DNA of 64,000 nucleotides, taken from Styela clava (Eukaryota). The stretch covers positions 8,928,001-8,992,000 of the forward strand of contig NC_135259.1 in NCBI RefSeq assembly GCF_964204865.1. The letters are read 5' to 3'. The notes below the pieces were generated by a model. It did no database searches, was not told the DNA's origin, and was given only the letters and a program-made list of their open reading frames with translations. The position numbers and the translations under genes are program-made. This document shows positions 19,058 to 64,000 of this stretch, piece after piece; positions within the stretch are counted from its first letter, which is position 1, and each line of letters begins with the position of its first letter.

Positions 19058-19249
19058 TCATATTACAATCCCTCTAATCCCTATTCAGTGTTAATAGAGT
19101 TTTCTCATTTTACATTTTTATTTTAGAGAGTAGTCTGACAATAGCGCAATATGCACTGAAGACCAACCCCTAAAAGCCTAATATTTGTGAAGCTACCGTA
19201 TCGTATATACTGCATAAAAAATTTATGTTCTCATTAACAAATTTTAAAG

Positions 19250-19522
19250 CAGGCAGTGCAACATTTTTTTTCGGTGAGTCATAACCAACTTCAGACATCT
19301 AGCTGAGTCACACACAAAAATTTCACGTACACAACGAATTCAAAAAATTATCACAATGTAAGATTTATTGTAGCGACAAGAGTAAAAAACCTTCCTAGAC
19401 ATAAACTGCTGTCGGATTAAAATTTTAGGTTTGATGGTACAAAAGCTGAGTGTTGACAAGGGCCATATTAAATAGACTTGTGGGCCGGGTTGTCGCCCGT
19501 GGACCGCCTGTTGCACACCCCT
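19250..19522. mobile_element. hAT-like MITE downstream of paralogue A
   Basis: Left end CAGGCAGTGCAAC, right end GTTGCACACCCCT, preceded by a GC-rich gggccgggttgtcgcccgtggaccgcc subterminal motif. Confidence 0.5.
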
Positions 19523-21189
19523 TTTTCGAAATATGAAGGCGTGAAAATTGCATGCAAATTACAGGGTTTCTTGACGCGACTTTTAATATACTTATATGAA
19601 AAATGGTATTATTGATTAAAAATGTTGTATGAAATCTTAGTTTTAGATTTTCTATTTTTTGTCGCAGTTTAACATTGTTATTGTTATAGTAGAAATATAA
19701 AATAAATTTAAATTTTACAGTGATTTGGTCCTTTTTATTTGTGGTCATTGGACTCCAGAAAGTGATATAATAAGCTAAAGCTGTCCTGAAATTTCAGGAA
19801 TGTTAAGAATAAATATCACACGTATTTCATGCCAAAATTGTTTCTTATAAGAGAGCTACTGAAAATATTTGAATGGTACTTCAGCGTACACCTAAAATAA
19901 ATAGCGCATACCTGAAAAGGCCCAGACTTCAAACCTCACCAGTGGAAAATAGGCAGTAAAAGGCCAGTTTCGAAAACGTTTGATTCAATTAAAGTAATTT
20001 CCGATGGTATATATATTGTCACCTTATAAACAATTCGAATTCAATTAATTTCCCGGCCTGTAGTCGGTGATGCATATGTAGAAAATGATTAACATTCATC
20101 AATGAAGATTTTTTTTTCAAATTGGAGATGAGGTGAAGGACTGGAACTTGCTGTCCAACCATTTAAACTTTACAATTCAAAATATAAAGTATGTACAGTA
20201 GAAATTACTGCAAAAAAAAGTAAGTATTGAATATGATTGTAGATATAACATTTATGACAAAGGTATCTGATTCCAATTTTTTAGAACGTCGTCATTTTTT
20301 AACTTTGATGATTTTTTCAGTGCGGTGTAAATCTGTCATTGACCGAAAATTGACCCCTTGTATCGCTCGACACGCCCAGTTATAATGATTAGGCGTTTCT
20401 TCGTCAAAAGTGCCAAGGCCAACTCTTAAATCATTGAGTGGTTTGTTATAATTTGACGGCCTCTTCAAGACTTTCATTAAAAAAGCAAAATTGTGAAATT
20501 TCTACGAGAGAAGCACTTTTGACTCATCACAAAAACGCACAACGATATCTTGGAATAGAAATAAAAAATTATTTGAAGAAAATTCAACTTATAGATTGCT
20601 CGTCTGTAACTTACGGGAGTGAACTCTCACAGACGAATATTTGGCCACTATAAGACTGCTAGTTGTGAGATTAAAATTTGATTTATAGATAAAATTAAAT
20701 TCTATTTACAATATTTTCGACAGTGCTGCCAAATAATTGTAATAATTTTCTCATACATTCCGGCGAGATCAAAGGAAAGAATTTAAATGAAAACAACGAT
20801 ATATTCGGCAATTTAAACAACGATCGTACTGGTTTATACTGTCAAAATCAAATAAATATTCCTAACGTTATTCCTTTTGTTATTCATATATTATTTCTTA
20901 CTAGAGCATGCCTATTTACACACGGAGGGCGCAATATTGGCACGTGTGTCTCGCATGGTCAGTGTAAACAAACCATAAATATCAGAGCAAAATATTACTT
21001 TTGTGCCTGTCGTGAAAATACTTTTATGACCCTACTGTTTTTGCATACTTCATTGCATATTGATACGTGACTCACGTTGACTAATGGAACTTTGCTACTT
21101 GTTCATAAAATAAATATTATTTGTAATGAAACTATTTTTAAAATTAATAATGAATAATAAGTAAAACTATTTTGTTTATCGGAAATATA

Positions 21190-21420
21190 TATTTGTTGAA
21201 TAACTCATTTAAGAAACTTCATTGGTGTATTTTGAAATTGCTTCCGTATTTATTATTGGGCAGCGTGTGTACTACACAGTATTCCAAAACCATTTTGTTT
21301 TCCTTCACGGGACTGGCTAAATTTGTAAATGCATATTCTACAAACACTGCCAATTAATAATATGGAAACAATTTGAAAATACACCTATGGAGTAACTTAA
21401 AAAGGTTTACCAATAAATGT
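21190..21420. repeat. Imperfect long inverted repeat (fold-back)
   Basis: 21206-21271 (catttaagaaacttcattggtgtattttgaaattgcttccgtatttattattgggcagcgtgtgta) is the reverse complement, with mismatches, of ~21339-21404. Spacer is ~68 bp. Confidence 0.8.
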
Positions 21421-22751
21421 TACTCAATTAATATTGCATAGTCTTGGGCGACAGGATAAAATGGCTCGTCATTTACGATTTGTACCCGTTCAACTCGAAC
21501 CGTGCTTCAAAGTATTTATGAAACATGTACAGTGTGCTGAGTTTTGTAAAGTAAACAGATAAGTCATCTGTTTAGAGTGAGAAATACGATCATACAAGGG
21601 TTATTGAAGTTACATACTATATACATTTTCAAGTATCCTTCATAGTGGATAATTTTATTAGACTAATCTAAGTATATTAATCGTATTATATTTGTTGCGA
21701 TATATTTATATATGAACTTGGTATCACCAATCTTATTATTTTCGACTCATCTGTGACTATACAGCCTTAGTGGGTTATAGTTCGTCCAAAAATTTAATTA
21801 TTTTCAAATTTCAGAAAATAACAAGCACTTTCATTTCCTTTAAGTTTTAATATTAGCGAAATGAGTAAATCTCATAAAGAGTGACTATTTATAGATCGAG
21901 TGTTATATGCTTATTCGAAGCAGTTTTCGTCTAGGCTTTATTTGCTAAAACACAGCCAATGACGCAGTATTTGCGTTCTCCGACTATAAGTGATATTACG
22001 CCATGTGATTTAAATGAATTTTATAGCAATTAATAAATTGCGTTTTACATATTGTTCACTTGGAACGTCTGCTATTTTTTTTATTTGGAGCGAGAACTCT
22101 ACCAGACAAAACTTGTAAAAGTAAATGCATTTATTATGTGATCAAGGAATGCCGTGAACATTTATGGAACGAACAAGTTTAAGTTATGTTTCGATCAGAT
22201 AGCAGTAAAAAAGGAAATTTTCAATGTCTGAAGCAGCTGAAGGTATTATTGAATCGTACTCTACTTGAATTCGTATAAAAATTTCAAAGTTGACTGATAG
22301 AACAATTCAAATTTATTTCGAAATTAAAATACGGATGAGATATCTCAAGTCATGTCTTTGGTGGACGTTTTTTTAATTCTTTCATATTTATAAAGTAAAA
22401 CGGAGTGACTGCAAAATGCCAGAAAATTCAATTGTTTTAGTAGGTTTTAAATGTTGTGGGGACGCCGACAATTGCCCCTAAAGTTTAGTCAAACATGTTT
22501 TACGACAGGATCGAAGACACAACCTCAAAAGTAATATTTACCGACCGCAAAATATGATAAAATATGTGTGTTGCGTCGTAACGATTCCCGTGGATGACAC
22601 ATGTTTGCTATCCTTGTGGTTTAATTGTGTACATCGTTCCACGTAAAACCTTTTTCGTGATTGCTCGGGTATTCTGTTTAAAAGGAAGCAAACATCTGTT
22701 CACAAATCCATATAGCTATAATTGCCAGTGCTTCTAGAGCTTTTTTAAAAA

Positions 22752-24580
22752 ATGGCTGAGAACCCAAAAAACGATGTTGGAATGTTACGAAGAAGAAGAA
22801 GATCAGAACCCGCAGTTCTCATGCAGCATAATTTAAATCGTTTAAAATTTCACCGTTCATCAATTAATTATCCATCTAAAATTCAAGAAGAAGATGAAGT
22901 ATCTAAAAACGCAGTACAAACATCATACATCAATCTTCAAAATGGAAAACGAGTAGAATATTCTGGTGATGTGAAATATACACCTCCACGTACAAGACGA
23001 CTTTCACTAGATTCACGTTTCAGTGAACCTGGCAAGAAGAAGCTGACGTTTGAACAATGGTGTAAAATGGTGCACGAAAGATCAAAACGTGAAAAAATGA
23101 AACAGGAATCGGATGTAAGTAATGCAATGGTGAAATATTCAAAACATAGTTTGTTATTTTCTTCGTCTTAAAAACATTAAACTTTTTTGATAAAGATCAA
23201 CACTCTTCATTTTTCCTAGTATTCCGATTATTCATATCACACATGCTGATTTAGTTTACTCGGACAGTAAATTGCTCCTAATCTACTTGCGACCCTTCAT
23301 TTATTTCTATACTGCATAAAATTATTCACCTTTTTAATTTAATTAACGATAGAACTTGAAACAACCGGAGAGTTATATTTCATTTTATATTAATATTGAC
23401 GGAAAATGGAACTTCACATTTTCCATATTTATCAACTTCATTATTCATTCTCTAGTGAAATTTTTTTTGATGCTTATAGGAACAGAGAAAGTTTCTTGAG
23501 TTAACAACGAGAAGAAATAGTATTACTTTTGAAGAGTGGAATAAAAATGTTGAAATGCGGAAAAAGATCGAAGAATTGAAAATCGCGGAAAAAGAGAAGG
23601 AAGATTTAGAAACCAAAGAAGCAGAAAGATTGAACAACATGAAACGAAGAATTTCTTTTACCGAATGGTTAGGACAAAAAACGGAAAGACAGTCGGTGAG
23701 TTTTTTGTTCAACTATTCGAGTCATATCAAAATCGCGCTTAAAAATGATAACGTACAGGATATCAAGTACTAATCTTTGTTTAAATATTTGAATACAAAT
23801 AAACTTAATCGTGTATATTTTTCTGAATCCCTATTTATTATGCAATATCAGTAATCAGGAATCAAATATTAGGTTGTCCGTCCAGTATGAATGTTTCCAC
23901 CGAGTCAATGAAAAAATATTAGATGATTTCATATTATGTGGTCATGAAAAGCATTTAAAAATATTATATATTCTGAAATTCGGAACTAAAACTAAATTTT
24001 GAGCTTCTGTTGTAACTTTGTAAGGTTATCCAGACTAAAATTATGTGAAAATGATATTCTATGCTATTCAAGAGTCCAAATGCACAATAACACAAATGTT
24101 TTTCCGTAACGTTCGTCCGACCAAAATCGATTATTTTTATTAGGATTTTTTTTTGTTTTGGAGGGGCGAGCATTTATAGCTAAAATTAAAAGACAATTTA
24201 TATTTTAGTTGGCACATCATTATAACATATTGCATGGGAATTTCTTCTTATAACAGATAAATTATGACAACGCCAATAAAGAATCAACGTCGGAGATAAG
24301 AGTGCGTCGATCCGGCCTTGACAGCATAAATATTTTTGATGGTTCTAACATTACTCGTCAAATGCGTCGAAATTCAGAAACACCTTTACCAGTATCAGTA
24401 TCCGTCGATGAGAAAGAAATCAACAAATTGCAAAAATCGAATGATGCCTTCCAGAAATGGATGGTTAAAAAGGAACTTGAGGCTATTAAAAAAGAACGTG
24501 AAGAATTACTAAAATCTCGTCAACTTTTTTCAGAATATTTGAAGCAAAATTCTTCAGTCTGCTTTCCTTCACTGGTATAA
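22752..24580 (+). CDS. CCDC34/CCDC181/MAP9-like coiled-coil protein, paralogue B (~300 aa, 3 exons)
   Basis: Exons 22752-23114, 23480-23695, 24257-24580 (phase 0). Repeats LTFEQW, ITFEEW, ISFTEW. C-terminal KSNDAFQKWMVKKELEAIKKEREELL aligns with KSEEAHRKWMIKKELEEIKRDRDMLL of paralogue A. Confidence 0.75.
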
Positions 24581-28100: not shown

Positions 28101-30249
28101 ATTTCATTGATGATGCCAGGTTGGCAATAAAATGTTCTATGTTTCACAAGTAGTGTTGGTACAATCAAATCATTGTTAGCTAATTAAAAATGTAGTAGAA
28201 TTGATATGTTTTACCTTTCTTGTCTCCGCAGGATTTTTTCTTTGAATTAACATTTTCATATCGACTCTTTTTGTCAGAGTTTAATGAAAGTTCTTTAATG
28301 AGATCATTAAAAGCGTTTACGTCATCTTCGCTCAGTCCATCCTCTGCTTTATAAAATCAGTTTATTCATTTTTAAACTTTATTGAATTCAGTTTCCAATT
28401 TTATATTTTAAAGATATGTAGCTATGTATTTAAAAAATATTTAATAATACCAATATGTTCGTTTTATACTACAAAGCAGTACATATCACATGATTCTGGG
28501 AGAAAACAACTTATAGATTCTGCGAATTAATGTGAAAAGAGTCAAAGGTTTGTATTATTAATCAATAATTAAATAATCAAATTGAACAACGAGAGCGAAG
28601 TGTACAGTTTGGATATACTGCCACTACAACATCCTGTCCGGGGTGACTGCCCCTATGGCCCTCTCCTAGACTTGCCCCTGTCTAAACTAATTGCTTCGGA
28701 AGTTTTATTTCTGAATACACTTACCTTGGGGTAGTTCATCTGTAGACCAAGCCATATTCTCTAGTTCTTCGATAAAAATGTCATCTAACTCCGGAGATTT
28801 AGAACTATTTTTTTCTGGAGGAAGTAGAAGTTTTACCAAACTCTCTGTGAGTTGAACAATATCAGTAATAGGCTTCTCTTTTACTTTTCTTCGCACGTAC
28901 TTTCTTTTCACTCTCGTCAATCCAGGTATTTCTTTGGCGGTGGATACTCTTGCTTTGCCAGGCTTTCTTCCGCGTTTTTTGCCTGTTTTCGTTATTGGTA
29001 TGGCAGAGTTCAAATTATCTAACATAATGTCCGAAGGTTGCTGTCAATAAAATGTTAAAAATTGTGAATTATTGTCGCACAAATGATAAAAAAAAAATCA
29101 GTGTAAGTTTTAATAACCTGATATTCTTTTGTAGTAGTTTTGTCAATGGATCTCTTCGTATTGTATTTTACCCGCGATACTCCTCGACCTGTATGAAAAG
29201 GAAGCATGAAGCTCACAAGCGATTCATAATTATATATATATACTAACAATCAATATAATATATTATAATATAAACTTACTGACGATAACTTAGTGATACA
29301 ATAAAGTGAATTTTTTTTAGTTGATCTTCCCCAGAATCAAATTAAAAATCTGAATATGTTCATAGGTGGTTATTGTGTTATGCTAACGATGTGTTTTTTA
29401 AATATTGCTGAGAACAAATTGGGACAAATAACGTAAGTTCGCTTGATTAAATGTTACTTATATATTCTGCTCCACCTTGTAATTAGAATTTAAAATAAAT
29501 TTCCGTTGACATAATATTTGAAGTCAAACATAAATATAATTTGATATTTCAATGTCTATACTCTTTGTAGGGATCAAATTAGAAGAATGAAAATACAAGT
29601 TGACGTTAAATTAATTTTCTAATCAAAAGAAGTTACGCTTACGTTCAATTTTGCTCTAAAATAAAATGAAAAAAAAATACGGTTAATCAATTACTCTAAT
29701 TTGCACAATTTTTTTTTTAACTTTAATATTTTTATTTGAATAAGATATAAAAACTTGAATTCCCAAAATAAAAAAATATAAACGGAGAATCATTTTTAGA
29801 GGTTCAGTAAATGGTTAATAAAATCCAATTTTGAAGTATTAAGTCTGCGATGTCATTCAATTGTGAACACGTTAAAAAAACATTAATCCGATCCTTATTG
29901 TCGTTGTTATTTACTCACTTTTTGTACGACCGCCTCGACGTTTTACGTTTGTAGTTCGTACTGGAGAAGGATATGCAATATGAGTATAATATCTGTAGGG
30001 TGTCTGATATGAGGAGAAGTAAGCGTTTGCCGGTATTTTATCATCCAATTGTCCTTGATAAAACAACCTGTTTCCACCTTCATTTTCCCCGTATAATCCA
30101 CCATTTATCAGAGCGTATGGATACGGCTGAGGATAAGCCATATCGGGCATGGGTGGCACCGGACAAACAGTTTGTAAGTTTGGTCCAGATAAACTATCGA
30201 AATCCAAAGGAACCTGCGGTTTCACGCGTTGTTCATCGCTGTCTGTCAT
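25127..30249 (-). CDS. Uncharacterised, probably nuclear, largely disordered protein with AT-hook-like basic motifs (~500 aa, 8 exons)
   Basis: Minus-strand exons 30249-29919, 29188-29118, 29040-28725, 28346-28215, 27613-27399, 26595-26479, 25951-25786, 25290-25127, GT-AG and phase-consistent; the last exon is least certain. Pro/Tyr-rich N-terminus, KRRGGR, KKRGRKPGK, KRKYVRRK, acidic patch DDIFIEELENMAW. Confidence 0.65.
26790..27067 (+). repeat. Dispersed repeat family with an (AAC)n-rich core; reverse copies at ~420-600 and ~14945-15175
   Basis: Shared blocks aa(g/a)taatag(c/g)ctt(c/t)ta, attggtc(t/c)ag, an AAC-rich tract and a terminal taggtc(c/t)actt(c/t)gtg. The 14945 copy is more degenerate. 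Confidence 0.6.
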
Positions 30250-32861: not shown

Positions 32862-34706
32862 ATGGCAAGCTTGAAGCTTTACATCAAGGTAATCTAAGGA
32901 AATAATATAAGACCATAAGAAACATGAATTACGTGCATTATAGTAATTGACGGTTTCATACGGGAATGATCGTATTCTAAAGAATTACTTTTTGTAAACT
33001 TACTATATTTGTGACCGATATTCATCCGTAGGCTTAATATGACGACGAAACAATATGCTTATAACAGACTTTAGTAAATGACCAGATGATATATTATGTA
33101 AATTTTCGTATAATATGGTTGTATTGATAGATGATATATTTTTGTGTCCCATCATATTTTTAAGTAATGAGTATATGTAGGTTTAAATATAAAAGTCTAA
33201 CGAGGTTTTTGTTTTTTTAGATTGTTGCATTATGCTCTGTCTGTCTTATCAGCGTATCTTCATTTGACCCTGAGTAAGTGTTTAGTGATGTTCGCCAATT
33301 TTTTGTAATATATTTATCGGCGTTTTGAGATAGATTGGATTATTAAACTAATATCTAGTATTAATGTATTATTTAAATGTCATACATTGTATAATTTAGG
33401 GTAGAATTAATTCTGACTAGTGCGGTGCTAAAGGATTTAAAAAAAAAATTATTTATTTTGTTAAAAAATAACCTTCATACAGAATTTTAGAATGGTGTAT
33501 TTGCTTATTTATTCGTATAAATATTACTCTTTAACAAAATCGTATGACTCATTAACAAAAATTATCTTTTCTTACAGCTCAGACTTTATAAGAACTCACA
33601 ACTGCAAAGTCAATAAAACAGAAACAGTAGATGATGGATTTGCTTCTTATTACTTGCATGGGTGAGTATCGAGTACATATTTTCAACTTTACGAGAGAGT
33701 ATAAAAAATGAGTCTGAATTTCCTACGTGCTTTGAATCATTTATCTGCTTTATTACAAAGCTATAGTGATATTCTTATTTCTGCCGAGTAATACCACTCG
33801 GCCAATTAATATAATTTTAGGTGGACACAGATACCACATGTTGTCGCAAAGAGCAATACATACTTATATTTTGCTTGGAGAATAAAATAGCTAATTTATA
33901 CTTCCCTCCAGTTGTGAAACCTTACACAATTTTACAATTCATCCATTCACGGTATTCGTATTTTCAGGATTGATTGTCTAAACTTGAAGCCAAGTTCTTT
34001 CCCAAGCGCCATATGTTCATCCACAAGATGTCGCGAACCTATAAATGGAACACCTTTGTCTGGCAAAAGATACGAACCAAAAGAAGTATTGTTTAAACTA
34101 CACTTTGACAGTCGTCTAAATGGCAAATTTACAAAATCACTAACAGTTGCATGCAGGTATGTTTTTTTATCATATTTTATTGCAATATTTAAATTACAAT
34201 GGCCCTTTTCAACATAATTAGTATAAATTTGAAATCTCTAAAATACTAAAAATGCTGACTAACATAAGAAATTGCTGTAATATTTAACCTCTCAATAAAA
34301 CAAAAGTTGGGCAGCTATATATTGGTAAACACAAGACTGAAAAGTAAACCATTATTTTTTTCGACAAAGATCGTTCTGAATATGATTTCGTTTATTTTTT
34401 CTATTTTCAGTCAACTAATCAAAGTTAATTTAGATTTCAAAAGGGTATGTTATATTAAAGGTGTATGATAATTCCTCTTCGCCTTGTTAATTAGAAATAG
34501 ATCATACAATACCTTTTATGGCATTATAAATAATGAAATTTTAAACTAGAAAAGTGATCCAACATTTAAGATTTTACTTTAGATGTGTCAAAGTCGAAAA
34601 ATTGACTAAACGGCGAAAAGGAAGACGGGGCCGAAAAGGAGGAAAAGGCAAAGACAAGAAATCTCGTCGAGGAAAAAAAGCGAGAAAAGCTCACACAGAC
34701 TCATAA
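32862..34706 (+). CDS. IL-17-like secreted cystine-knot cytokine with basic tail, copy 1 (158 aa, 5 exons)
   Basis: Exons 32862-32888, 33221-33273, 33578-33661, 33968-34156, 34583-34706 (477 nt). Product MASLKLYIKIVALCSVCLISVSSFDPDSDFIRTHNCKVNKTETVDDGFASYYLHGIDCLNLKPSSFPSAICSSTRCREPINGTPLSGKRYEPKEVLFKLHFDSRLNGKFTKSLTVACRCVKVEKLTKRRKGRRGRKGGKGKDKKSRRGKKARKAHTDS. Signal peptide, A-x-C-x4-C-x-x-P-x-x-G and VACxCV as in IL-17. The gene model is strong; the family call is moderate. Confidence 0.8.
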
Positions 34707-35120
34707 TGCTTCATTGCCGAACTGTTCAGACGTGATTGAAATTGAAAATGTTTTGTTACCTATTATTTATATATTAGTAATCTATTTTTTCATGATTTCG
34801 TTTAAAAGGTAAAAATATTTGAAGCTGACTTTTGTTTTCATTATATTCATACATATTTATGAAATGCAATATTATTTTGGGGAATCCAAGTTTGCTTCAG
34901 TGTTAAATCGTATAAAATATTTTCAAAAGTAATTATATTTATTATATTTTAATGTATTTATTTATCTATTCTATTTATTATTTCCACTGAAAATTGTTAT
35001 TTCTTTTAAATATTTTTATAATGTTAATCGACCAAATTTATAGTTTTCTATTAATTATTATTTCAACTAGTTTTATTGAAGTCATGGTGCAAAAATTTAC
35101 ATATTTATATATATTTGCTA
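34707..35120 (+). promoter_or_regulatory. AU-rich-element-containing 3' region of the IL-17-like gene
   Basis: Multiple ATTTA pentamers, including overlapping TATTTATTTAT (~34956) and TTATTTAT (~34763). The background is AT-rich, so significance is limited. Confidence 0.4.
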
Positions 35121-35609
35121 TTTTGGTGCTTCTAATTATTTTAAATAAATTACTTTCTGCATAACATGAGCATCTATGATATAGGTGTAGATATGAAAAA
35201 GTTGAGTGGATAAGTTTATAACCGTTTTTTGAGGGATTTTGCTTTTGAGTGAAGTGTGAGCGCGAGTGGAACATTTACCCACATCGGTAAGACCGATTAC
35301 ATCATCGTCACCACGATAATACTTATTATCTCATGCTTGAGCTGCGCTTTCTTTATATTGTTCTCTCACCTGTCACGGAGAATAACCTCATGCTTATTAC
35401 AGACTTTAGTGCAGGAGTCGAAAACCTTTTGTCGCTCGCGTGCCAAAATTAAGGGGTGCGAGTCATTGGCGGGCCTCCCATATTTTTAGAAAGTTGAAAA
35501 CCGAACGGATGATACGTTTTATAAAAAAAATCAAGCAGTGATACATCTCTCGGATCGAATATTGATTTATTTCCTCATTGCATCTCAAAAAAGTCCCTTT
35601 GAATATTTT

Positions 35610-36024: not shown

Positions 36025-36077
36025 ACTGTCGCATTATGTTGCATCTGTATTATCAGCGTATCTTCATTTGATCCTGA
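36025..36077 (+). pseudogene. Orphan duplicate of the IL-17-like exon 2 (signal-peptide exon) with flanking intron-1 homology; also at 42063, 48097, 54154, 60015
   Basis: 53-nt exon TVALCCICIISVSSFDP versus IVALCSVCLISVSSFDP, flanked by AG/GT. Upstream 35862-36024 aligns with intron 1 (33069-33220). No matching exon 1 or exon 3. Confidence 0.8.
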
Positions 36078-38895: not shown

Positions 38896-40738
38896 ATGGC
38901 AAGCTTGAAGCTTTACATCAAGGTAAGCTAAGGAAATAGTATAAGACCATAAGAAACATGAGTTACGTGCATTATAGTAATTGACGGTTTCATACGGGAA
39001 TGATCGTATTCTAAAGAATTACTTTTCGTAAACTTACCTATATTTGTGTCTGATCTTCATCCGTGGGCTTAATATGACGACGGAACAATATGCTTATAAC
39101 AGACTTTAGTAAATGGCCAGATGATATATTATGTAAATTTTTGTATAATATGGTTCTATTGATAGATGATATATTTTTGTGTCCCATCATATTTTTAAGT
39201 AATGAGTATATGTAGGTTTAAATATAAAAGTCTAACGAGGTTTTTGTTTTTTTAGATTGTTGCATTATGCTCTGTCTGTCTTATCAGCGTAACTTCATTT
39301 GACCCTGAGTAAGTGTTAAGTGATGTTCGCTAATTTTTCGTAATATATTTATCGGCGTTTTAAGATAGATTTGATTATTAAACTAATATCTAGTATTAAT
39401 GTATTAATTAAATGGCATACATTGTATAATTTAGGGTAGGATTAATTCTGACTAGTGCGTTGCTAAACGTATTGAAAAAAAAAAATGTTTATTTTGTTAA
39501 AAAATAACCTTCATACAGAATTTTAGAATGGTATATTTGCTTATTTATTCGTATAAATATTACTCTTTAACAAAATCGTATGACTCATTAACAAATAATA
39601 TCTTTTCTTATAGCTCAGAGTTTATAAGAACTCACAACTGCAAAGTCAATAAAACAGAAACAGTAGATGATGGATTTGCTTCTTATTACTTGCATGAGTG
39701 AGTATCGAGTATATATTTCAACTTTACGAGAGAGTATAAAAATGAGTCTGAATTTCCTACGTGCTTTATTTATTGATCTGTTTTATTACAAAGCTATAGT
39801 GATATTCTTATTTCTGCTGAGTAATACCACTCAGCATATTAATATAATTTTAGCTAGACACAGATTCCACATTTTTGTCGCAAAGAGCAATACTTATTTA
39901 TATTTTGATTGGAGAATAAACCAGCTAATTTATACTTCCCTCCCGTTATAAAACCTTGCAAAATTTTACGATTCATTCATCTACGATATCCGTATTTTCA
40001 GGGTCAATTGTATAAACTTAGAGCCAAGTTCTTTCCCAAGCGCCATATGTTCATCCACAAGATGTCGCGAACCAATAAATGGAAAACCTTTGTCTGGCAA
40101 AAGATACGAACCAAAAGAAGTATTGTTTAAACTACACTTTGACAGTCGTCTAAATGGCAAATTCACAAAATCACTAACAATTGCATGCAGGTATGTTTTT
40201 TTATCATATTTTATTTCAATATTTAAATTACAATGGCCCTTTTCAACATAATTAGTATAAATTTGAAATCCCTAAAATACTAAAAATGCTGACTTACATA
40301 AGAAATTGCTGTAATATTTAACCTCCCAATAAAACAAAAGTTGGGCAGCTGTATATTGATAAACACAAGACTGAAAAGTAAACCATAATTTTTTTTCGAC
40401 AAAGATCATTCTGAATATGATTTCGTTTATTTTTTGTATTTTCAGTCAACTAATCAAAGTTAATTTAGATTTCAAAAGGGTATGTTATATTGAAGGTGTA
40501 TGATTCCTCTTCGCCTTGTTAATTAGAAATAGATCATACAATACCACTTATGGCATTATAAATAATGAAATTTTAAACTAGAAAAGTGATCCAACATTTA
40601 ATATTTTACTTTAGATGTGTCAAAGTCGAAAAATTGACTAAACGGCGAAAAGGAAGACGGGGCCGAAAAGGAGGAAAAGGCAAAGACAAGAAATCTCGTC
40701 GAGGAAAAAAAGCAAGAAAAGCTCATAGAGATTCATAA
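38896..40738 (+). CDS. IL-17-like cytokine, copy 2 (intact)
   Basis: Same five exons with intact splice sites. Variant residues: VTSFDPDSEF, YLHEVNCINLEP, INGKP, LTIACRCV, AHRDS. Confidence 0.8.
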
Positions 40739-43700
40739 TGATTCATTGCCGAACTGTTCAGACGTGATTGAATTTGAAAATGTTTTGTTAGCTATTATTT
40801 ATATATTATTTATCTATTTTTTCATGACTTCGTTTAAGGTAAAAATATTTAAAGCTGAATTTTGTTCTCACTATATTCATACATATATATGAAATGCAAT
40901 ATTATTTTGGGGAATCCAAGTTTGCTTCAGTGTTAAATTGTATAAAATATTTTCAAAAATAATTATATTTTCATGTATTTATTTATCAACTCTATTTATT
41001 ATTTCCACTGAAAATTGTTCATTCTTTTAAATATTTTTATAATGTTAATCGACCAAATTTATAGTTTTCTATTAGCTATTATTTCAACTGGTTTTATTGA
41101 AGTCATGGTGCTGGACTTTACATAATTTAATATATTTGTTATTTTGGTGCTTCTAATAATTTTAAATAAATTACTTTCTGCGTAACATGGGCATCTATGA
41201 TATAGTTGTAGATATGAAAAAGTTGAGTGGATAAGTTTATAACCGTTTTTTGAGGGATTTGAGTGAAGTGTGAGCGCGAGTGGAATATTTACCTACGGCG
41301 ATAAGAACGATTACATCATCGTCACCACGATAATACTTATTATCTCATGCTTGAGCTGCGCTATCGTTATATTGTTCTTTCACCTGTCACGGAGAATAAC
41401 CTAATGCTTATTACAGACTTTAGTGCAGGAGTCGGAAACCTTTTGTCGCTCGCGTGCCAAAATTAAGGGGTGCGAGTCATTGGCGGGCCGCACATATTTT
41501 TAGAAAGTTGAAAACCGAACGGATGATACGTTTTATAATAAAAATCAAGCAGTGATACATCTCTCGAATCGAATATTGATTTATTTCCTCATTGCATCTC
41601 AAAAAATTGCATAGCATCTCAAAAAAGTCCCTTTGAATGTTTTCGGCGCCATTGAACCCTTTGCACTCAGCATCAAATTTTCTGCGTTTAGTTGCCATTA
41701 ATTAAACGAGTTCAATAAACGAGTATTTGTGAATTTTATTATAATTCAGGGTACACGTGTCTCACAATAAATTCTGTTACGTAACATTCTGTTGGTCAAA
41801 ACAGCTGTTTTGCTGCTATAATTCAGTGAAGTGTCGCGGGCCGGATTATATTACTCCGCGGGCCGGATCCGGCGCAGGGCCGTAGGTTGCCGACCCCTGC
41901 TTTAGTGAATGTCCATATGATATAAGATGTAAACTTGGATGGTAGTAAATATTTGGTATGATATGGTTGTATTGATACGTGATATATTTTCGTGTCCCAT
42001 TATATTTTGAGTAATAAGTAAATGTGAGTGCTAATATAAAACTTTAACGTTTTTGTTTTTAGATTGTCGCATTATGTTGCATCTGTCTTATCAGTGTATC
42101 TTCATTTGATTCTGAGTAAGAGTTGAGTAATTTCACAGTTATCTTGACGTGTTCTAGTTATCGTAATTTGCAATAAATTCCCCAGAAGTCCTTTAAATGT
42201 GCGTTTCATTGTCGCACTTTATTAGATTACTTTTTTATTTTATATTTTAAACAGATTCACATTGATTTGTATCATAATATTACAGCATCTGGAGTAATTT
42301 TTTATAAATGGTATTCGTTTGATTGCTATTTTATTGTAGTATGTTTTTATGTGACTCCTGTTTTAAACAAGAGGTTGTACGTATAGAACGAATCTTACAT
42401 GCTTAGGTCTTTCGTATTTATGTTCTATCCGCTAGGGAGTACACGAGAGGCAATTTATAATTGTTGATAAAATGACATTACATTTTCCCACCGTTCTCTG
42501 GCCCTCTATTTGATAACTTTCAAATTGGAACGTCTATGTACACCTAATTGTTTTAAATGAATTTGGTGGGTGTATTTATTCACTTTTGAATTTCATGCAA
42601 TGTATTTTTGAATTTTAAAGTGAGATTGAGATAAATTCACGTAACAATCAGTAAAAATATACAGATAATGTTTCAAATCCACGATAACAAAAGCTACTTT
42701 AAAAAATTTTATATACCAAAGTAAAATGAGCCGTCAATTAATGGTATGACGTGAAATTAGATTTTTTTTTTATAAAACCGGCGTTTGTAGTGTATATGTT
42801 CATAATGTAATATCTCGGTATTAATGTGATAACAAAAATTTGTTCGTAGTTTTCCAAATGCATTTGAGTGGCTTTGTGATACTTTGCGTCACATCAATTC
42901 AAGATATTTAAATTGTCCAGCGCAATACTCATAAAGGAGAGCAAAAAGATGAAATAATTGGCTTCCAACATTTCCAACACTCTACAGGTGGGTTTTCGAC
43001 GGAGTTCCGCAGTTACATTTCAGGATTACCGCAAGTTTACATCTTGAAGTATAATTTTTCACGGGTATATTGTTTAAACATATTCAAATAACTATTAGAT
43101 TTGCAAATATTATTGATATTGTATCATTTTGTTTTGACAGTTTCACATTATTAGAGATTGATTGTATAAATGTGTAATATATACTTATAGTTTATACAAA
43201 TTTATATTTTATATTAGATTATATATAGTGTGTAAAATAACGTATTGCAAACTATTGTATTGGGGTTCCCCAAACCTCCAGAATATTCCATAGAAGTTCC
43301 ACTCCACCGGAAAGGTTGAAAATGACCCGTCTATTGATTTCATTCAACATCGTTTTCCAAACCTATTTTCCCGGAACACCTACGCTTTTATCTCGCCTCG
43401 CGGAACACCAAAAAATAAAAAGGTAATATTGATAATGAAAGAATCGTGTAATGGATTTACCTTGTACCCCAACTTGCACAACTGGTTTATCGCGACATCT
43501 TTTGAGGTTTACAGTTTTAATCCAACAATTCATTGAAAAGGGTGCTCTCCAACAAATTTAGCCTATATAATAAAATTAAAAAGTTTGCTTCAACCTTAGC
43601 AATTGAAAAACTAGACCGATAGTTAACGATATTCAACGGTTCACAAAAGTGTCATGCTTTGCATACTGTTACGAGACCTGTCTACCTGCTTAGATAGCAA

Positions 43701-44929: not shown

Positions 44930-46772
44930 ATGGCAAGCTTGAAGCTTTACATCAAGGTAAGCTAAGGAAATAGTATAAGACCATAAGAAACATGAGTTAC
45001 GTGCATTATAGTAATTGACGGTTTCATACGGGAATGATCGTATTCTAAAGAATTACTTTTCGTAAACTTACCTATATTTGTGTCTGATCTTCATCCGTGG
45101 GCTTAATATGACGACGGAACAATATGCTTATAACAGACTTTAGTAAATGGCCAGATGATATATTATGTAAATTTTTGTATAATATGGTTCTATTGATAGA
45201 TGATATATTTTTGTGTCCCATCATATTTTTAAGTAATGAGTATATGTAGGTTTAAATATAAAAGTCTAACGAGGTTTTTGTTTTTTTAGATTGTTGCATT
45301 ATGCTCTGTCTGTCTTATCAGCGTAACTTCATTTGACCCTGAGTAAGTGTTAAGTGATGTTCGCTAATTTTTCGTAATATATTTATCGGCGTTTTAAGAT
45401 AGATTTGATTATTAAACTAATATCTAGTATTAATGTATTAATTAAATGGCATACATTGTATAATTTAGGGTAGGATTAATTCTGACTAGTGCGTTGCTAA
45501 ACGTATTGAAAAAAAAAAATGTTTATTTTGTTAAAAAATAACCTTCATACAGAATTTTAGAATGGTATATTTGCTTATTTATTCGTATAAATATTACTCT
45601 TTAACAAAATCGTATGACTCATTAACAAATAATATCTTTTCTTATAGCTCAGAGTTTATAAGAACTCACAACTGCAAAGTCAATAAAACAGAAACAGTAG
45701 ATGATGGATTTGCTTCTTATTACTTGCATGAGTGAGTATCGAGTATATATTTCAACTTTACGAGAGAGTATAAAAATGAGTCTGAATTTCCTACGTGCTT
45801 TATTTATTGATCTGTTTTATTACAAAGCTATAGTGATATTCTTATTTCTGCTGAGTAATACCACTCAGCATATTAATATAATTTTAGCTAGACACAGATT
45901 CCACATTTTTGTCGCAAAGAGCAATACTTATTTATATTTTGATTGGAGAATAAACCAGCTAATTTATACTTCCCTCCCGTTATAAAACCTTGCAAAATTT
46001 TACGATTCATTCATCTACGATATCCGTATTTTCAGGGTCAATTGTATAAACTTAGAGCCAAGTTCTTTCCCAAGCGCCATATGTTCATCCACAAGATGTC
46101 GCGAACCAATAAATGGAAAACCTTTGTCTGGCAAAAGATACGAACCAAAAGAAGTATTGTTTAAACTACACTTTGACAGTCGTCTAAATGGCAAATTCAC
46201 AAAATCACTAACAATTGCATGCAGGTATGTTTTTTTATCATATTTTATTTCAATATTTAAATTACAATGGCCCTTTTCAACATAATTAGTATAAATTTGA
46301 AATCCCTAAAATACTAAAAATGCTGACTTACATAAGAAATTGCTGTAATATTTAACCTCCCAATAAAACAAAAGTTGGGCAGCTGTATATTGATAAACAC
46401 AAGACTGAAAAGTAAACCATAATTTTTTTTCGACAAAGATCATTCTGAATATGATTTCGTTTATTTTTTGTATTTTCAGTCAACTAATCAAAGTTAATTT
46501 AGATTTCAAAAGGGTATGTTATATTGAAGGTGTATGATTCCTCTTCGCCTTGTTAATTAGAAATAGATCATACAATACCACTTATGGCATTATAAATAAT
46601 GAAATTTTAAACTAGAAAAGTGATCCAACATTTAATATTTTACTTTAGATGTGTCAAAGTCGAAAAATTGACTAAACGGCGAAAAGGAAGACGGGGCCGA
46701 AAAGGAGGAAAAGGCAAAGACAAGAAATCTCGTCGAGGAAAAAAAGCAAGAAAAGCTCATAGAGATTCATAA
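44930..46772 (+). CDS. IL-17-like cytokine, copy 3 (intact, apparently identical protein to copy 2)
   Basis: Offset of exactly +6034 from copy 2. Exons and splice sites read identically. Confidence 0.8.
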
Positions 46773-49700
46773 TGATTCATTGCCGAACTGTTCAGACGTG
46801 ATTGAATTTGAAAATGTTTTGTTAGCTATTATTTATATATTATTTATCTATTTTTTCATGACTTCGTTTAAGGTAAAAATATTTAAAGCTGAATTTTGTT
46901 CTCACTATATTCATACATATATATGAAATGCAATATTATTTTGGGGAATCCAAGTTTGCTTCAGTGTTAAATTGTATAAAATATTTTCAAAAATAATTAT
47001 ATTTTCATGTATTTATTTATCAACTCTATTTATTATTTCCACTGAAAATTGTTCATTCTTTTAAATATTTTTATAATGTTAATCGACCAAATTTATAGTT
47101 TTCTATTAGCTATTATTTCAACTGGTTTTATTGAAGTCATGGTGCTGGACTTTACATAATTTAATATATTTGTTATTTTGGTGCTTCTAATAATTTTAAA
47201 TAAATTACTTTCTGCGTAACATGGGCATCTATGATATAGTTGTAGATATGAAAAAGTTGAGTGGATAAGTTTATAACCGTTTTTTGAGGGATTTGAGTGA
47301 AGTGTGAGCGCGAGTGGAATATTTACCTACGGCGATAAGAACGATTACATCATCGTCACCACGATAATACTTATTATCTCATGCTTGAGCTGCGCTATCG
47401 TTATATTGTTCTTTCACCTGTCACGGAGAATAACCTAATGCTTATTACAGACTTTAGTGCAGGAGTCGGAAACCTTTTGTCGCTCGCGTGCCAAAATTAA
47501 GGGGTGCGAGTCATTGGCGGGCCGCACATATTTTTAGAAAGTTGAAAACCGAACGGATGATACGTTTTATAATAAAAATCAAGCAGTGATACATCTCTCG
47601 AATCGAATATTGATTTATTTCCTCATTGCATCTCAAAAAATTGCATAGCATCTCAAAAAAGTCCCTTTGAATGTTTTCGGCGCCATTGAACCCTTTGCAC
47701 TCAGCATCAAATTTTCTGCGTTTAGTTGCCATTAATTAAACGAGTTCAATAAACGAGTATTTGTGAATTTTATTATAATTCAGGGTACACGTGTCTCACA
47801 ATAAATTCTGTTACGTAACATTCTGTTGGTCAAAACAGCTGTTTTGCTGCTATAATTCAGTGAAGTGTCGCGGGCCGGATTATATTACTCCGCGGGCCGG
47901 ATCCGGCGCAGGGCCGTAGGTTGCCGACCCCTGCTTTAGTGAATGTCCATATGATATAAGATGTAAACTTGGATGGTAGTAAATATTTGGTATGATATGG
48001 TTGTATTGATACGTGATATATTTTCGTGTCCCATTATATTTTGAGTAATAAGTAAATGTGAGTGCTAATATAAAACTTTAACGTTTTTGTTTTTAGATTG
48101 TCGCATTATGTTGCATCTGTCTTATCAGTGTATCTTCATTTGATTCTGAGTAAGAGTTGAGTAATTTCACAGTTATCTTGACGTGTTCTAGTTATCGTAA
48201 TTTGCAATAAATTCCCCAGAAGTCCTTTAAATGTGCGTTTCATTGTCGCACTTTATTAGATTACTTTTTTATTTTATATTTTAAACAGATTCACATTGAT
48301 TTGTATCATAATATTACAGCATCTGGAGTAATTTTTTATAAATGGTATTCGTTTGATTGCTATTTTATTGTAGTATGTTTTTATGTGACTCCTGTTTTAA
48401 ACAAGAGGTTGTACGTATAGAACGAATCTTACATGCTTAGGTCTTTCGTATTTATGTTCTATCCGCTAGGGAGTACACGAGAGGCAATTTATAATTGTTG
48501 ATAAAATGACATTACATTTTCCCACCGTTCTCTGGCCCTCTATTTGATAACTTTCAAATTGGAACGTCTATGTACACCTAATTGTTTTAAATGAATTTGG
48601 TGGGTGTATTTATTCACTTTTGAATTTCATGCAATGTATTTTTGAATTTTAAAGTGAGATTGAGATAAATTCACGTAACAATCAGTAAAAATATACAGAT
48701 AATGTTTCAAATCCACGATAACAAAAGCTACTTTAAAAAATTTTATATACCAAAGTAAAATGAGCCGTCAATTAATGGTATGACGTGAAATTAGATTTTT
48801 TTTTTATAAAACCGGCGTTTGTAGTGTATATGTTCATAATGTAATATCTCGGTATTAATGTGATAACAAAAATTTGTTCGTAGTTTTCCAAATGCATTTG
48901 AGTGGCTTTGTGATACTTTGCGTCACATCAATTCAAGATATTTAAATTGTCCAGCGCAATACTCATAAAGGAGAGCAAAAAGATGAAATAATTGGCTTCC
49001 AACATTTCCAACACTCTACAGGTGGGTTTTCGACGGAGTTCCGCAGTTACATTTCAGGATTACCGCAAGTTTACATCTTGAAGTATAATTTTTCACGGGT
49101 ATATTGTTTAAACATATTCAAATAACTATTAGATTTGCAAATATTATTGAACTTGTATCATTTTGTTTTGACAGTTTCACATTATTAGAGATTGATTGTA
49201 TAAATGTGTAATATGTATTTATATTTTATACAAATTTATATAGCCCTGCAGCCTTACAAGTATACTGTAGATAGGTGTATAAAATAACGTATTGCAAACT
49301 ATTGTATTGGGGTTCCCCAAACCTCCAGAATATTCCATAGAAGTTACACTCCGTCTAAAAGGTTGAAAATGACCCGTCTATTGATTACATTCAACATCGT
49401 TTCCCAAACCTATTTTCCCGGAACACCTACGCTTTTATCTCGCCTCGCGGAACACCAAAAAATAAGAAGGTATTATTGATAATGAAAGAATTGTGTAATG
49501 GATTTACCTTGTGCCTCAACTTGCACAACTGGTTTATCGCGACATCTTTTGAGGTTTTCAGTTTTAATCCATCAATTCATTGAAAAGGGTTCTCTCCAAA
49601 AAATTTAGCCTATATGGTAAAATTAAAAAGTTTACTTGAACCATAGCATTTGAAAAACTAGGCCGATAGTTAACGATATTCAACGGTTCACAAAAATGTC

Positions 49701-50968: not shown

Positions 50969-52814
50969 ATGGCAAGCTTGGAGCTTTACATCAAGGTAAG
51001 CTAAGGAAATAGTATAAGACCATAAGAAACATGAATTACGTACATTATAGTAATTGACGGTTTCATACGGGAATGATCGTATTCTAAAGAATTACTTTTT
51101 GTAAACTTACCTATACTTGTGACCGATATTCATCCGTAGGCTTAATATGACGACGAAACAATATGCTTATAACAGACTTTAGTAAATGGCCAGATGATAT
51201 ATTATGTAAATTTTCGTATAATATGGTTGTATTGATACATGATATATTTTTGTGTCCCATCATATTTTTAAGTAATGAGTATATGTAGGTTTAAATATAA
51301 AAGTCTAACGAGGTTTTTGTTTTTTTAGATTGTTGCATTATGCTCTGTCTGTCTTATCAGCGTATCTTCATTTGACCCTGGGTAAGTGTTTAGTGATGTT
51401 CGCCAATTTTTCGTAATATAGTTATCGGCGTTTTAGGATAGATTGGATTATTAAACTATTATCTAGTATTAATGTATTTATTAAATATCATACATTGTAT
51501 AATTTAGGGTAGAATTAATTCTGACTAGTGCGGTGCTGAAGGATTTAAAAAAAAAATATTTATTTTGTTAAAAAATAACTTTCATACAGAATTTTAGAAT
51601 GGTATATTTGCTTATTTATTTGTATAAAATATACTCTTCAACAAAATCGTACGGTTCTTTAATAAATAATATCTTTATCTTATAGCTCCGAGTTTATAAG
51701 AACTCACAGTTGCAAAGTCAATAAAACAGAAACAGTAGATGATGGATTTGCTTCTTATTACTTGCATGAGTGAGTATCGAGTACATATTTTCAACTTTAC
51801 GAGAGAGTATAAAAAATGAGTCTGAATGTCCTAAGTGCTTTGATTTATTTATTTGCTTTATTACAAAGCTATAGTAATATTATTATTTCTGCTGAGTAAT
51901 ACCACTCAGCAGATTAATATAATTTTAGCTAGACACAGATTCCACATGTTTGTCGCAAAGAGCAATACTTATTTATATTTTGCTTGGAGAATAAACTAGC
52001 TAATTTATACTTCCCTCCCTTTATAAAACCTTGCAAAATTTTACGATTCATTCATCTACGATATCCGTATTTTCAGGGTTAATTGTATAAACTTAGAGCC
52101 AAGTTCTTTCCCAAGCGCCATATGTTCATCCACAAGATGTCGCGAACCTATAAATGGAAAACCTTTGTCTGGCAAAAGATACGAACCAAAAGAAGTATTG
52201 TTTAAACTACACTTTGACAGTCGTCTAAATGGCAAATTCACAAAATCAATAGCAATTGCATGCAGGTATGTTTTTTTATCATATTTTATTGCAATATTTA
52301 AATTACAATGGCCCTTTTCAACATAATTAGTATAAATTTGAAATCCCTAAAATACTAAAAATGCTGACTAACATAAGAAATTGGTGTAATATTTAACGTC
52401 TCAATAAAACAAAAGTTGGGCAGCTATATATTGATAAACACAAGACTGAAAAGTAAACCATAATTTTCATTCTTAAGATCATTCTTAATATGATTTCGTT
52501 TATTTTTTCTATTTTCAGTCAACTAATCAAAGTTAATTTAGATTTCAAAAGAGTATGTTATATTAAAGATGTATGATAATTCCTCTTCGCCTTATTAATT
52601 AGAAATAGATCATACAATACCTTTTATGGCATTATAAATAATGAAATTTCAAACTAGAAAAGTGATCCAACATTTAATATTTTACTTTAGATGTGTCAAA
52701 ATCGAAATATTGACTAAACGGCGAAAAGGAGGACGGGGCCGAAAAAGAGGAAAAGGCAAAAACAAGAAATCTCGTCGAGGAAAAAATGCGAGAAAAGCTC
52801 ACACAGACTCATAA
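50969..52814 (+). CDS. IL-17-like cytokine, copy 4 (intact, divergent tail)
   Basis: MASLELYIK, FDPGSEFIRTHSC, KSIAIACRCV, tail KIEILTKRRKGGRGRKRGKGKNKKSRRGKNARKAHTDS*. Confidence 0.8.
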
Positions 52815-56881: not shown

Positions 56882-58725
56882 ATGGCAAGCTTGAAGCTTT
56901 ACATCAAGGTAAGCTAAGGAAATAATATAAGACCATAAGAAACATGAGTTACGTGCATTATAGTAATTGACGGTTTCATACGGGAATGATCGTATTCTAA
57001 AGAATTACTTTTCGTAAACTTACCTATATTTGTGTCTGATCTTCATCCGTGGGCTTAATATGACGACGGAACAATATGCTTATAACAGACTTTAGTAAAT
57101 GGCCAGATGATATATTATGTAAATTTTTGTATAATATGGTTCTATTGATAGATGATATATTTTTGTGTCCCATCATATTTTTAAGTAATGAGTATATGTA
57201 GGTTTAAATATAAAAGTCTAACGAGGCTTTTGTTTTTTTAGATTGTTGCATTATGCTCTGTCTGTCTTATCAGCGTAACTTCATTTGACCCTGAGTAAGT
57301 GTTAAGTGATGTTCGCTAATTTTTCGTAATATATTTATCGGCGTTTTAAGATAGATTTGATTATTAAACTAATATCTAGTATTAATGTATTAATTAAATG
57401 GCATACATTGTATAATTTAGGGTAGGATTAATTCTGACTAGTGCGTTGCTAAACGTATTGAAAATAAAAATGTTTATTTTGTTAAAAAATAACCTTCATA
57501 CAGAATTTTAGAATGGTATATTTGCTTATTTATTCGTATAAATATTACTCTTTAACAAAATCGTATGACTCATTAACAAATAATATCTTTTCTTATAGCT
57601 CAGAGTTTATAAGAACTCACAACTGCAAAGTCAATAAAACAGAAACAGTAGATGATGGATTTGCTTCTTATTACTTGCATGAGTGAGTATCGAGTATATA
57701 TTTCAACTTTACGAGAGAGTATAAAAATGAGTCTGAATTTCCTACGTGCTTTATTTATTGATCTGTTTTATTACAAAGCTATAGTGATATTCTTATTTCT
57801 GCTGAGTAATACCACTCAGCATATTAATATAATTTTAGCTAGACACAGATTCCACATTTTTGTCGCAAAGAGCAATACTTATTTATATTTTGATTGGAGA
57901 ATAAACCAGCTAATTTATACTTCCCTCCCGTTATAAAACCTTGCAAAATTTTACGATTCATTCATCTACGATATCCGTATTTTCAGGGTCAATTGTATAA
58001 ACTTAGAGCCAAGTTCTTTCCCAAGCGCCATATGTTCATCCACAAGATGTCGCGAACCAATAAATGGAAAACCTTTGTCTGGCAAAAGATACGAACCAAA
58101 AGAAGTATTGTTTAAACTACACTTTGACAGTCGTCTAAATGGCAAATTCACAAAATCACTAACAATTGCATGCAGGTATGTTTTTTTTTATCATATTTTA
58201 TTGCAATATTTAAATTACAATGGCCCTTTTCAACATAATTAGTATAAATTTGAAATCCCTAAAATACTAAAAATGCTGACTAACATAAGAAATTGGTGTA
58301 ATATTTAACCTCTCAATAAAACAAAAGTTGGGCAGCTGTATATTGATAAACAGAAGACTGAAAAGTAAACCATAATTTTTTTTCGACAAAGATCATTCTG
58401 AATATGATTTCGTTTATTTTTTGTATTTTCAGTCAACTAATCAAAGGTAATTTAGATTTCAAAAGGGTATATTATATTGAAGGTGTATGATTCCTCTTCG
58501 CCTTGTTAATTAGAAATAGATCATACAATACCTCTTATGGCATTATAAATAATGAAATTTCAAACTAGAAAAGTGATCCAACATTTAATATTTTACTTTA
58601 GATGTGTCAAAGTCGAAAAATTGACTAAACGGCGAAAAGGAAGACGGGGCCGAAAAGGAGGAAAAGGCAAAGACAAGAAATCTCGTCGAGGAAAAAAAGC
58701 AAGAAAAGCTCATAGAGACTCATAA
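56882..58725 (+). CDS. IL-17-like cytokine, copy 5 (intact, copy-2 type)
   Basis: Five exons intact. Coding sequence matches the copy 2/3 type. Confidence 0.8.
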
Positions 58726-62861: not shown

Positions 62862-64000
62862 ATGGCAAGCTTGGAGCTTTACATCAAGGTAATCTAAGGA
62901 AATAATATAAGACCATAAGAAACATGAATTACGTGCATTATAGTAATTGACGGTTTCATACGGGAATGATCGTATTCTAAAGAATTACTTTTTGTAAACT
63001 TACCTATATTTGTGACCGATATTCATCCGTAGGCTCAATATGACGACGGAACAATAAGCTTATAACAGACTTTAGTAAATGGCCAGATGATATATTATGT
63101 AAATTTTCGTATAATATGGTTCTATTGATAGATGATATATTTTTGTGTCCCATCATATTTTTAAGTAATGAGTATATGTAGGTTTAAATATAAAAGTCTA
63201 ACGAGGTTTTTGTTTTTTTAGATTGTTGCATTATGCTCCGTCTGTCTTATCAGCGTATCTTCATTTGACCCTGAGTAAGTGTTTAGTTATGTTCGCCAAT
63301 TTTTCGTAATATATTTATCGGCGTTTTAAGATAGATTGAATTATTAAACTAATATCTAGTATTAATGTATTAATTAAATGTCATACATTGCATAATTTAG
63401 GGTAAAATTAATTCTGACTAGTGCGGTGCTAAAGAATTTAAAAAAAATTATTTATTTTGTTAAAAAATAACATTCATACAGAATTTTGGAATGGTATATA
63501 TGTCTATTTATTCGTATAAATAATACTCTTCATTAAAATCGTACGGTTCTTTAACAAATATTATCTTTTTCCTATAGCTCAGAGTTTATAAGAACTCACA
63601 ACTGCAAAGTCAATAAAACAGAAACAGTAGATGATGGATTTGCTTCTTATTACTTGCATGAGTGAGTACCGAATACATATTTCAACTTTCTAAGACAGTG
63701 TAAAAATGAGTCTGAATTTCCTACGTGCTTTGATTTATTTATCTGTTTTATTACAAAGCTAGTGATATTCTTATTCCGGCTGAGTAATACCACTCGGCAT
63801 TAATATAATTTTAGCTAGACACAGATTCCACATGTTTGTCGCAAAGAGCAATACTTTTTTATATTTTGCTTGGAGAATAAACTAGCTAATTTATACTTCC
63901 CTCCCTTTATAAAACCTTGCAAAATTTTACGATTCATTCATCTACGATATCCGTATTTTCAGGGTTAATTGTATAAACTTAGAGCCAAGTTCTTTCCCAA
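62862..64000 (+). CDS. IL-17-like cytokine, copy 6 (truncated by the window end in exon 4)
   Basis: MASLELYIK exon 1, exons 2-3 intact, exon 4 starts at 63963 (VNCINLEPSSFP). Confidence 0.75.

Follow-up and report, generated by a model that had tools for sequence, protein, structure and literature searches.

A strongly cationic tail encoded by the last exon of tandemly arrayed IL-17-like genes in Styela clava, with a probable role in retention

Gene organization of the locus

The window, the whole stretch of 64,000 nt of Styela clava DNA analyzed here, harbors on its forward strand a gene of five GT–AG exons that encodes 158 aa (Table 1). The last exon is directly preceded by a ...TTTAG acceptor and terminates with TAA. 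The last intron is in phase 2 and lies inside the codon of Arg118; exon 5 brings the last base of this codon as well as Cys119, with which the closing CxC motif ends. In the frame starting at 34584, exon 5 reads Cys and Val, followed by the 38 residues given in the first-pass annotation. The segment after the CxC motif therefore comprises 39 aa, one Val more than stated there, and its 20 Lys/Arg (K/R) residues confirm the claimed cationic tail encoded by the last exon. The N-terminus consists of a basic N-region and a hydrophobic stretch at residues 10–20, with a Kyte–Doolittle value of 2.75 in an 11-residue window. These features resemble a signal peptide, and the protein is likely secreted.

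Table 1. Positions of the exons, the tail segment and the tandem gene copies within the window
Feature	Position	Strand	Description
Coding exon 1	32862..32888	+	ATG, 9 codons; first part of the predicted signal peptide; matches the N-terminus of RefSeq P0003/P0005
Exon 2	33221..33273	+	Hydrophobic core of the predicted signal peptide and beginning of the mature chain
Exon 3	33578..33661	+	Cys36; Ala49-Ser50-Tyr51, likely a degenerate SPW motif (register by eye)
Exon 4	33968..34156	+	Bulk of the IL-17-like core: Cys58, Cys71, Cys76, Cys117
Exon 5	34583..34706	+	End of Arg118, Cys119, 39-aa tail with 20 K/R, stop
Polybasic Gly-rich segment	34608..34703	+	Residues 127–158; 5 overlapping BBXB; predicted disordered
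Likely 3′ UTR	34707..35149	+	9 ATTTA pentamers in an AT-rich background; AATAAA at 35144
Gene copy 2	38896..40738	+	Tail with 21 K/R; protein equals RefSeq XP_077973334.1 (P0005)
Gene copy 3	44930..46772	+	Identical to copy 2 in the coding exons, intron 4 and 440 nt of the 3′ UTR
Gene copy 4	50969..52814	+	Tail with 18 K/R; R-x-x-R absent
Gene copy 5	56882..58725	+	Tail with 21 K/R
Gene copy 6	62862..64000	+	Ends inside exon 4 at the window edge

Other features were also observed in the window. A cyclin gene is located at 6510–9354 (+), with Cyclin_N matches at 8097–8387 (E 6e-17) and 8738–8992, which are preceded by a 456-codon open frame without a Pfam match. In exons of the region 16308–24577 (+), charged helical motifs of the form 'F-x-x-W' recur, and a weak CCDC34 match, below the cut-off, falls at 18626–19054 (E 0.004). 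An open frame on the reverse strand (28708–29043) includes an AT-hook-like basic stretch with 18 K/R in 39 codons (28873–28989). It lies immediately upstream of the array and, judging from its residues, is probably an exon of a gene for a nuclear protein.

Tandem copies and paralogs

Six tandem copies of the gene, five whole and one cut, follow one another with a period of approximately 6 kb and share 94–96% identity; the gene described above comes first. Tandem IL-17 arrays are described as common in marine invertebrates (PMC8353272). The agreement between copies 2 and 3 may result from gene conversion, from a duplication that took place very recently, or from one introduced by the assembly. 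The tail is kept in all five whole copies, with 18–21 K/R, and none of them contains a frameshift or stop. The proteins of copies 2, 3, and 5 are identical to XP_077973334.1, which may stem from the same assembly and would then not be independent. The matching Styela clava RefSeq entries are all designated 'uncharacterized' (LOC120338200, LOC144428250, LOC144428251, LOC120337097, and LOC120338096). These five entries represent the same genes or close paralogs, and their returned names mention neither IL-17 nor a tail.

Each 6-kb unit also includes an orphan duplicate of exon 2 (36025–36077, 42063–42115, 48097–48149, 54154–54206, and 60015–60067). The duplicates are about 82–89% identical to exon 2 (86% for 36025..36077 (+)), with intact splice sites and frame, and they bring part of intron 1 but neither exon 1 nor exons 3–5. 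They are likely relics of an older partial duplication.

Protein searches retained only P0003, P0004, P0009, and P0010 as relatives, and no related loci were found in viral, prokaryote genome, or metagenome contigs. Two further candidates, P0011 and P0012 (E 5e-4 and 1e-3), are repeat proteins matched over 18–23 residues and were dropped. The paralog P0004 is 68% identical across exon 4 and has a 38-aa tail with 22 K/R. Compared with copy 1, its identities amount to 32/38 in the tail, a value inflated by low complexity, and 66/96 in the core, a difference that is not significant (Fisher p = 0.085). P0009 and P0010 are more distant and show no basic tail in their recorded form. P0009 runs on into non-basic sequence where the tail would be. 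P0010 (S. clava LOC120338096, 115 aa) breaks off precisely at the site of the last intron and lacks both the closing cysteine and a tail; this model may be truncated, with its last exon unannotated.

The tails of the recent copies differ by 0–7 non-synonymous and 0–3 synonymous changes. No sign of purifying selection was detected among these copies, in which exon divergence is about equal to that of intron 4. In the core, the differences between copy 1 and the others are mostly non-synonymous (9–13 vs 3), with several clustered at residues 55–62; this excess, based on few changes, may reflect diversifying selection or gene conversion.

These patterns bear on the idea that the tail is a tolerated purine-rich read-through after the last cysteine, spread by recent duplication and devoid of a role. 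Such an origin would agree with the absence of a purifying signal, with the lack of this tail in P0009 and P0010, and with the composition of exon 5, which is 73% purine and is basic in a second frame as well (16 K/R, on both sides of a stop). However, P0004 keeps a tail of the same length with its 32 identities although its core has diverged by 31%, and the reading frame is intact in every whole copy. We consider a roleless by-product improbable.

Splicing to the terminal exon

The exon 4–5 joint (34156->34583, GT..AG) is present in contigs from two of four runs, X1 and X2, which belong to one study, have a depth of 3–6, and are only guessed to be RNA. Both runs also contain the exon 3–4 joint, and X1 includes the exon 2–3 joint (33273->33578) together with a contig whose loose end at the exon 2 border carries exon 1 sequence. 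These spliced contigs could derive from any copy of the array. They stop at 34661 and 34638, and for the ~15 terminal codons and the stop the sequence comes from the genome and the RefSeq models. Exon joints are absent from X3, which spans all 30 bins including the introns, and X8 contains next to nothing of the stretch. Contigs of X1 and X2 that are unspliced across intron 1 into exon 2 (33003–33303) were also observed, both starting at 33003, and may represent a retained intron, an alternative 5′ exon, or library DNA.

No use of another acceptor for exon 5 was seen in X1 and X2 at their low depth. Eight of the 212 downstream AG sites are able to restore the CxC motif, and none of the other seven was seen in use in these two low-depth runs. 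Read-through into intron 4 was considered and rejected, as the resulting protein would lack Cys119, have a hydrophobic end of 20 aa, and be unlikely to fold. Since exon 5 also carries the last knot cysteine, which would be lost upon skipping, the tail is likely constitutive, in contrast to PDGF-A and CXCL12, where such a module is spliced in optionally.

Likely relationship of the core to IL-17

The first-pass annotation had called the protein a cytokine. In an ESM feature search, IL17 clusters ranked first for the whole protein (0.90) and for the core (0.89), with 181–189 shared features, and the ten best family matches all belong to the IL17 family or clan, although they come from one source with borderline scores. 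Pfam IL17 (PF06083) is the only family matching P0004, at 12.3 bits (E 0.23), below the gathering cut-off of 24 bits; P0008 likewise scores 12.5 under the cut-off of 24. No Pfam IL17 match was obtained for P0003, P0005–7, P0009, P0010, or the single exons. A chi-conotoxin Pfam match on residues 5–39 of P0010 (E 0.003, below the cut-off) falls on the signal region and was discarded.

The protein has six cysteines in total, including an extra Cys58. Cys71, Cys76, Cys117, and Cys119 correspond to the knot cysteines, with a spacing of C-x4-C-x40-CxC (4/40/1). By eye, the spacing is 4/44/1 in human IL-17F and 4/42/1 in Ciona IL17-2 (PMC4517768 S1 Dataset), and between the SPW position and the first knot cysteine the register with both proteins is, again by eye, gap-free. 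At the CPW/SPW site, located at the right distance, the by-eye alignment places A-S-Y here, A-P-Y in P0010, and S-P-Y in Ciona IL17-1/2. MEME motif 2 is recognizable by eye, while motif 3 (VLRR) is missing and RxP is degenerate. The Cys1/Cys4 pair is described as absent from all tunicate IL-17s (PMC11087794), and the corresponding positions hold Ala49 and Tyr90 here, not the usual Ser of the T2 type (register by eye). The protein resembles the chordate IL-17 T2 knot (human IL-17A/F; Ciona IL17-1/2/3) in its signal-peptide-like N-terminus, size, C-x4-C...CxC register, lack of the Cys1/Cys4 pair, Pro at −8 and Ala at −2 from the first knot cysteine, and tandem clustering. It differs in the replacement of the two serines, the degenerate SPW, the additional Cys58, and the polybasic tail.

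Structural comparisons were made with AlphaFold models of P0003 and P0004, which contain four long strands and have pTM values of 0.43 and 0.40. Entries with IL-17 titles account for five of the top ten and 36 of the 39 listed Foldseek rows, with E of at least 0.025, TMq of at most 0.25, redundant entries, and weak query models. VIA-align against IL-17A gave Z of 3.2–3.6 with these low-pTM models, and in wide VIA-align searches with the same weak models the best Z of 5.0–5.2 went to unrelated beta proteins. No cystine-knot protein appears among the best 50 rows of the wide structural searches, which, given the weak models, is evidence neither way. PDB sequence searches returned no match at E <= 10.

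A different cystine-knot-like or lineage-specific factor, one that is not a ligand of IL-17 receptors and whose tail anchors a growth factor or structural matrix protein, would account for the sub-threshold Pfam scores, the missing PDB match, the degenerate SPW, RxP, and VLRR motifs, the additional cysteine, and the higher Z of unrelated folds. The uniform IL17 assignment of the ten best ESM matches, the gap-free register, and the tunicate-type lack of Cys1/Cys4 argue against it, and we regard this identity as hardly probable. Membership in the IL-17 family is likely, at a rather high level of confidence, and the protein is termed IL-17-like. The cytokine identity stands in this likely form, whereas Pfam recognition above the cut-off and a significant fold match were not obtained.

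Composition of the tail

The tail contains 20 K/R and 3 Asp/Glu in 39 aa, with a net charge of +17; the mature chain has a net charge of +3 without it (residues 24–119) and of +20 with it (residues 24–158). Twenty K/R are reached by none of the 12,710 other stop-free stretches of 39 codons collected from six frames of the whole window with the five exon 5 copies masked (mean 4.9, maximum 18). The K/R richness is not due to chance. The tail is rich in Gly, Lys, and Arg, with 6 Gly, and none of its last 32 residues is Leu, Ile, Val, Phe, Trp, Met, or Tyr. BBXB motifs number five, overlapping, in copy 1 and three in both copy 4 and P0003. In the AlphaFold models of P0003 and P0004, built from alignments of only 8 and 4 rows, the tail has pLDDT < 50 and no secondary structure.

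Tails of other IL-17s were surveyed by eye in 91 proteins (PMC4517768 S1; three without visible ends) and 23 mussel isoforms (PMC8353272 Supplementary Data 2). None of the 111 proteins with visible ends carries a tail with 20 K/R. The first-pass annotation knew of no such tail on canonical IL-17A/F; this holds for human IL-17A/F, which by eye stop at most nine residues past the CxC motif, but weaker basic tails do occur in the family. By eye, K/R make up 13/38 residues in mussel IL17-13, 11/36 in mussel IL17-9, 9/36 in zebrafish IL-17D, and 8/14 in limpet 152638. Five Ciona IL-17s end, by eye, within nine residues past the CxC motif, whereas the Styela protein adds 39 polybasic residues. The mussel, limpet, and zebrafish tails all carry less charge than the Styela tail. 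Hydrophobic residues abound in those of mussel IL17-9 and IL17-13, the latter also containing an R-x-K-R site. No function of the mussel, limpet, or zebrafish tails was found in the available parts of the source papers. The Styela tail is an extreme but not unique variant of IL-17 tails, the most basic among those surveyed by eye.

Its charge invites comparison with antimicrobial peptides, and a fusion in which the tail binds or kills microbes, either attached or clipped off, was one of the proposed functions. Cationic chemokines, as well as fragments derived from them, may act against microbes (PMC3531597), the host is filter-feeding, and the tandem expansion parallels that of marine-invertebrate IL-17s (PMC8353272). 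However, the tail lacks a hydrophobic face and has a GRAVY of −2.2, and its helical moment is matched by 558 of 5000 shuffled sequences. Most antimicrobial peptides are amphipathic, and salt abolishes the activity of many chemokines (PMC3531597). A lytic fusion finds little favor in a tail without amphipathy; the tail may bind microbial surfaces, but the antimicrobial reading as a whole is unlikely. The 36–38-residue cationic and hydrophobic tails of mussel IL17-9 and IL17-13 are better candidates for released antimicrobial peptides than the Styela tail.

Removal of the tail as a pro-segment by a furin-type convertase, which would free a diffusible cytokine, had been proposed on account of dibasic and R-x-x-R sites. 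Such sites are present, with two R-x-x-R and four KR/RR pairs in copy 1 and R-x-x-R also in copies 2, 3, and 5 and P0004, yet they occur at the frequency expected from shuffling (P = 0.42 for copy 1). The consensus R-x-K/R-R occurs in none of nine tails examined. R-x-x-R was found in five of the nine, not above shuffles (P 0.42–0.73), and is absent from copy 4, P0003, P0006, and P0007, and KR/RR pairs do not exceed the shuffle means except in copy 4 (P 0.49). Release by a dedicated convertase is accordingly very unlikely.

Still less probable is binding to nucleic acid or action as a nuclear localization signal (NLS) or cell-penetrating peptide. The tail does contain three K[KR]x[KR] motifs, a bipartite-like spacing, and RG dipeptides. 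Motifs of this type would be expected in any stretch with 50% K/R, while the hydrophobic N-terminus and six cysteines indicate the secretory route, and little remains of the suggested NLS-bearing cytokine.

Discussion

VEGF189 and PlGF-2, both cystine-knot dimers, carry a basic, exon-encoded segment at the C-terminus that associates with heparan sulfate (HS) proteoglycans. PDGF and VEGF have an eight-cysteine core and signal through receptor tyrosine kinases. Long PDGF-A, likewise a cystine-knot dimer with an exon-encoded basic C-terminal segment, offers an analogy to the Styela protein, but its exon is optional (69 bp) and no sequence similarity between the two was found. The exon 6 peptide of PDGF-A is reported to associate with HS proteoglycans on the basis of charge (PMC2289277). 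CXCL12-gamma is described as having an unfolded tail of 30 aa encoded by the last exon, with 18 basic residues and BBXB clusters (PMC2040504). It binds heparin with a Kd of 0.9 nM, and its tail slows dissociation and keeps it at the cell surface (PMC2040504). By analogy, it resembles the Styela protein as a small disulfide-bonded cytokine with a last-exon tail of ~50–60% K/R and BBXB clusters, but differs in its chemokine fold, its action as a GPCR ligand, and its tail being one of several alternative last exons. The analogy with exon-encoded retention tails drawn in the first-pass annotation is borne out at the level of composition, as the tail has its own exon, consists of about one-half K/R, and carries BBXB clusters.

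We estimate a probability of roughly 55% that the tail retains a secreted IL-17-like protein on sulfated polysaccharides near its source, a reading that draws on these analogies. The scheme starts from the observed five exons, splicing to exon 5, tail composition, and conservation in the array and the paralog, and we infer every later step. The signal peptide would be removed near residue 23, and the core would fold as a four-cysteine IL-17 knot of the tunicate/vertebrate type. The protein would probably form a homodimer displaying two tails. The Gly/Lys/Arg tail, predicted to be disordered, would then be captured electrostatically by sulfated glycans of cells and matrix (heparin, heparan sulfate, or dermatan sulfate), and this capture would slow dissociation and shorten the signaling range. 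If the protein is released at all, trypsin-like proteases of a general type or polyanions acting as competitors would be responsible, rather than cleavage at a dedicated furin site.

Candidate ligands have been described in the genus. Styela plicata produces heparin and other sulfated glycosaminoglycans (PMC10609765), and GAG-like polysaccharides are reported in the S. clava tunic (PMC8747265), which is reportedly poor in sulfated galactan (PMC7540406). Tethering to the tunic specifically, as had been suggested, is unsupported. A seawater-like ionic strength would screen electrostatic binding.

A more far-reaching and rather doubtful proposal is that the tail is an obligatory glycan anchor on the last knot cysteine of a divergent, unannotatable, tandem-amplified Styela IL-17 subfamily. 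On this view, the protein would serve at mucosal or tunic surfaces as a sentinel cytokine that is permanently tethered and acts over a short range, and it might capture microbes as well. The IL-17 family would thereby have converged on the retention seen in CXCL12-gamma and PDGF-A, with a charge tuned to the ionic strength of seawater.

IL-17 is among the few cytokines common to invertebrates and vertebrates. No report of a Styela IL-17 or of a matrix-retention tail on IL-17 was found in the open-access literature. Styela is absent from the supplements of PMC11087794, and the terms 'IL-17', 'IL17', and 'interleukin' are absent from the main text of the S. clava genome paper. The tail is real, spliced, and conserved within S. 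clava, and it belongs to a divergent, unannotated IL-17-like subfamily in which, by analogy, it probably works like known retention tails. The retention mechanism itself is already well known from other ligands, and the tail has so far appeared only in Styela clava entries. The array represents an IL-17-like cluster of a kind overlooked by Pfam-based surveys. If the tail tethers the protein, spatial control by a basic tail would have arisen again, in a third cytokine family, and the mode of action of such tails at the ionic strength of seawater could be tested simply with this protein.
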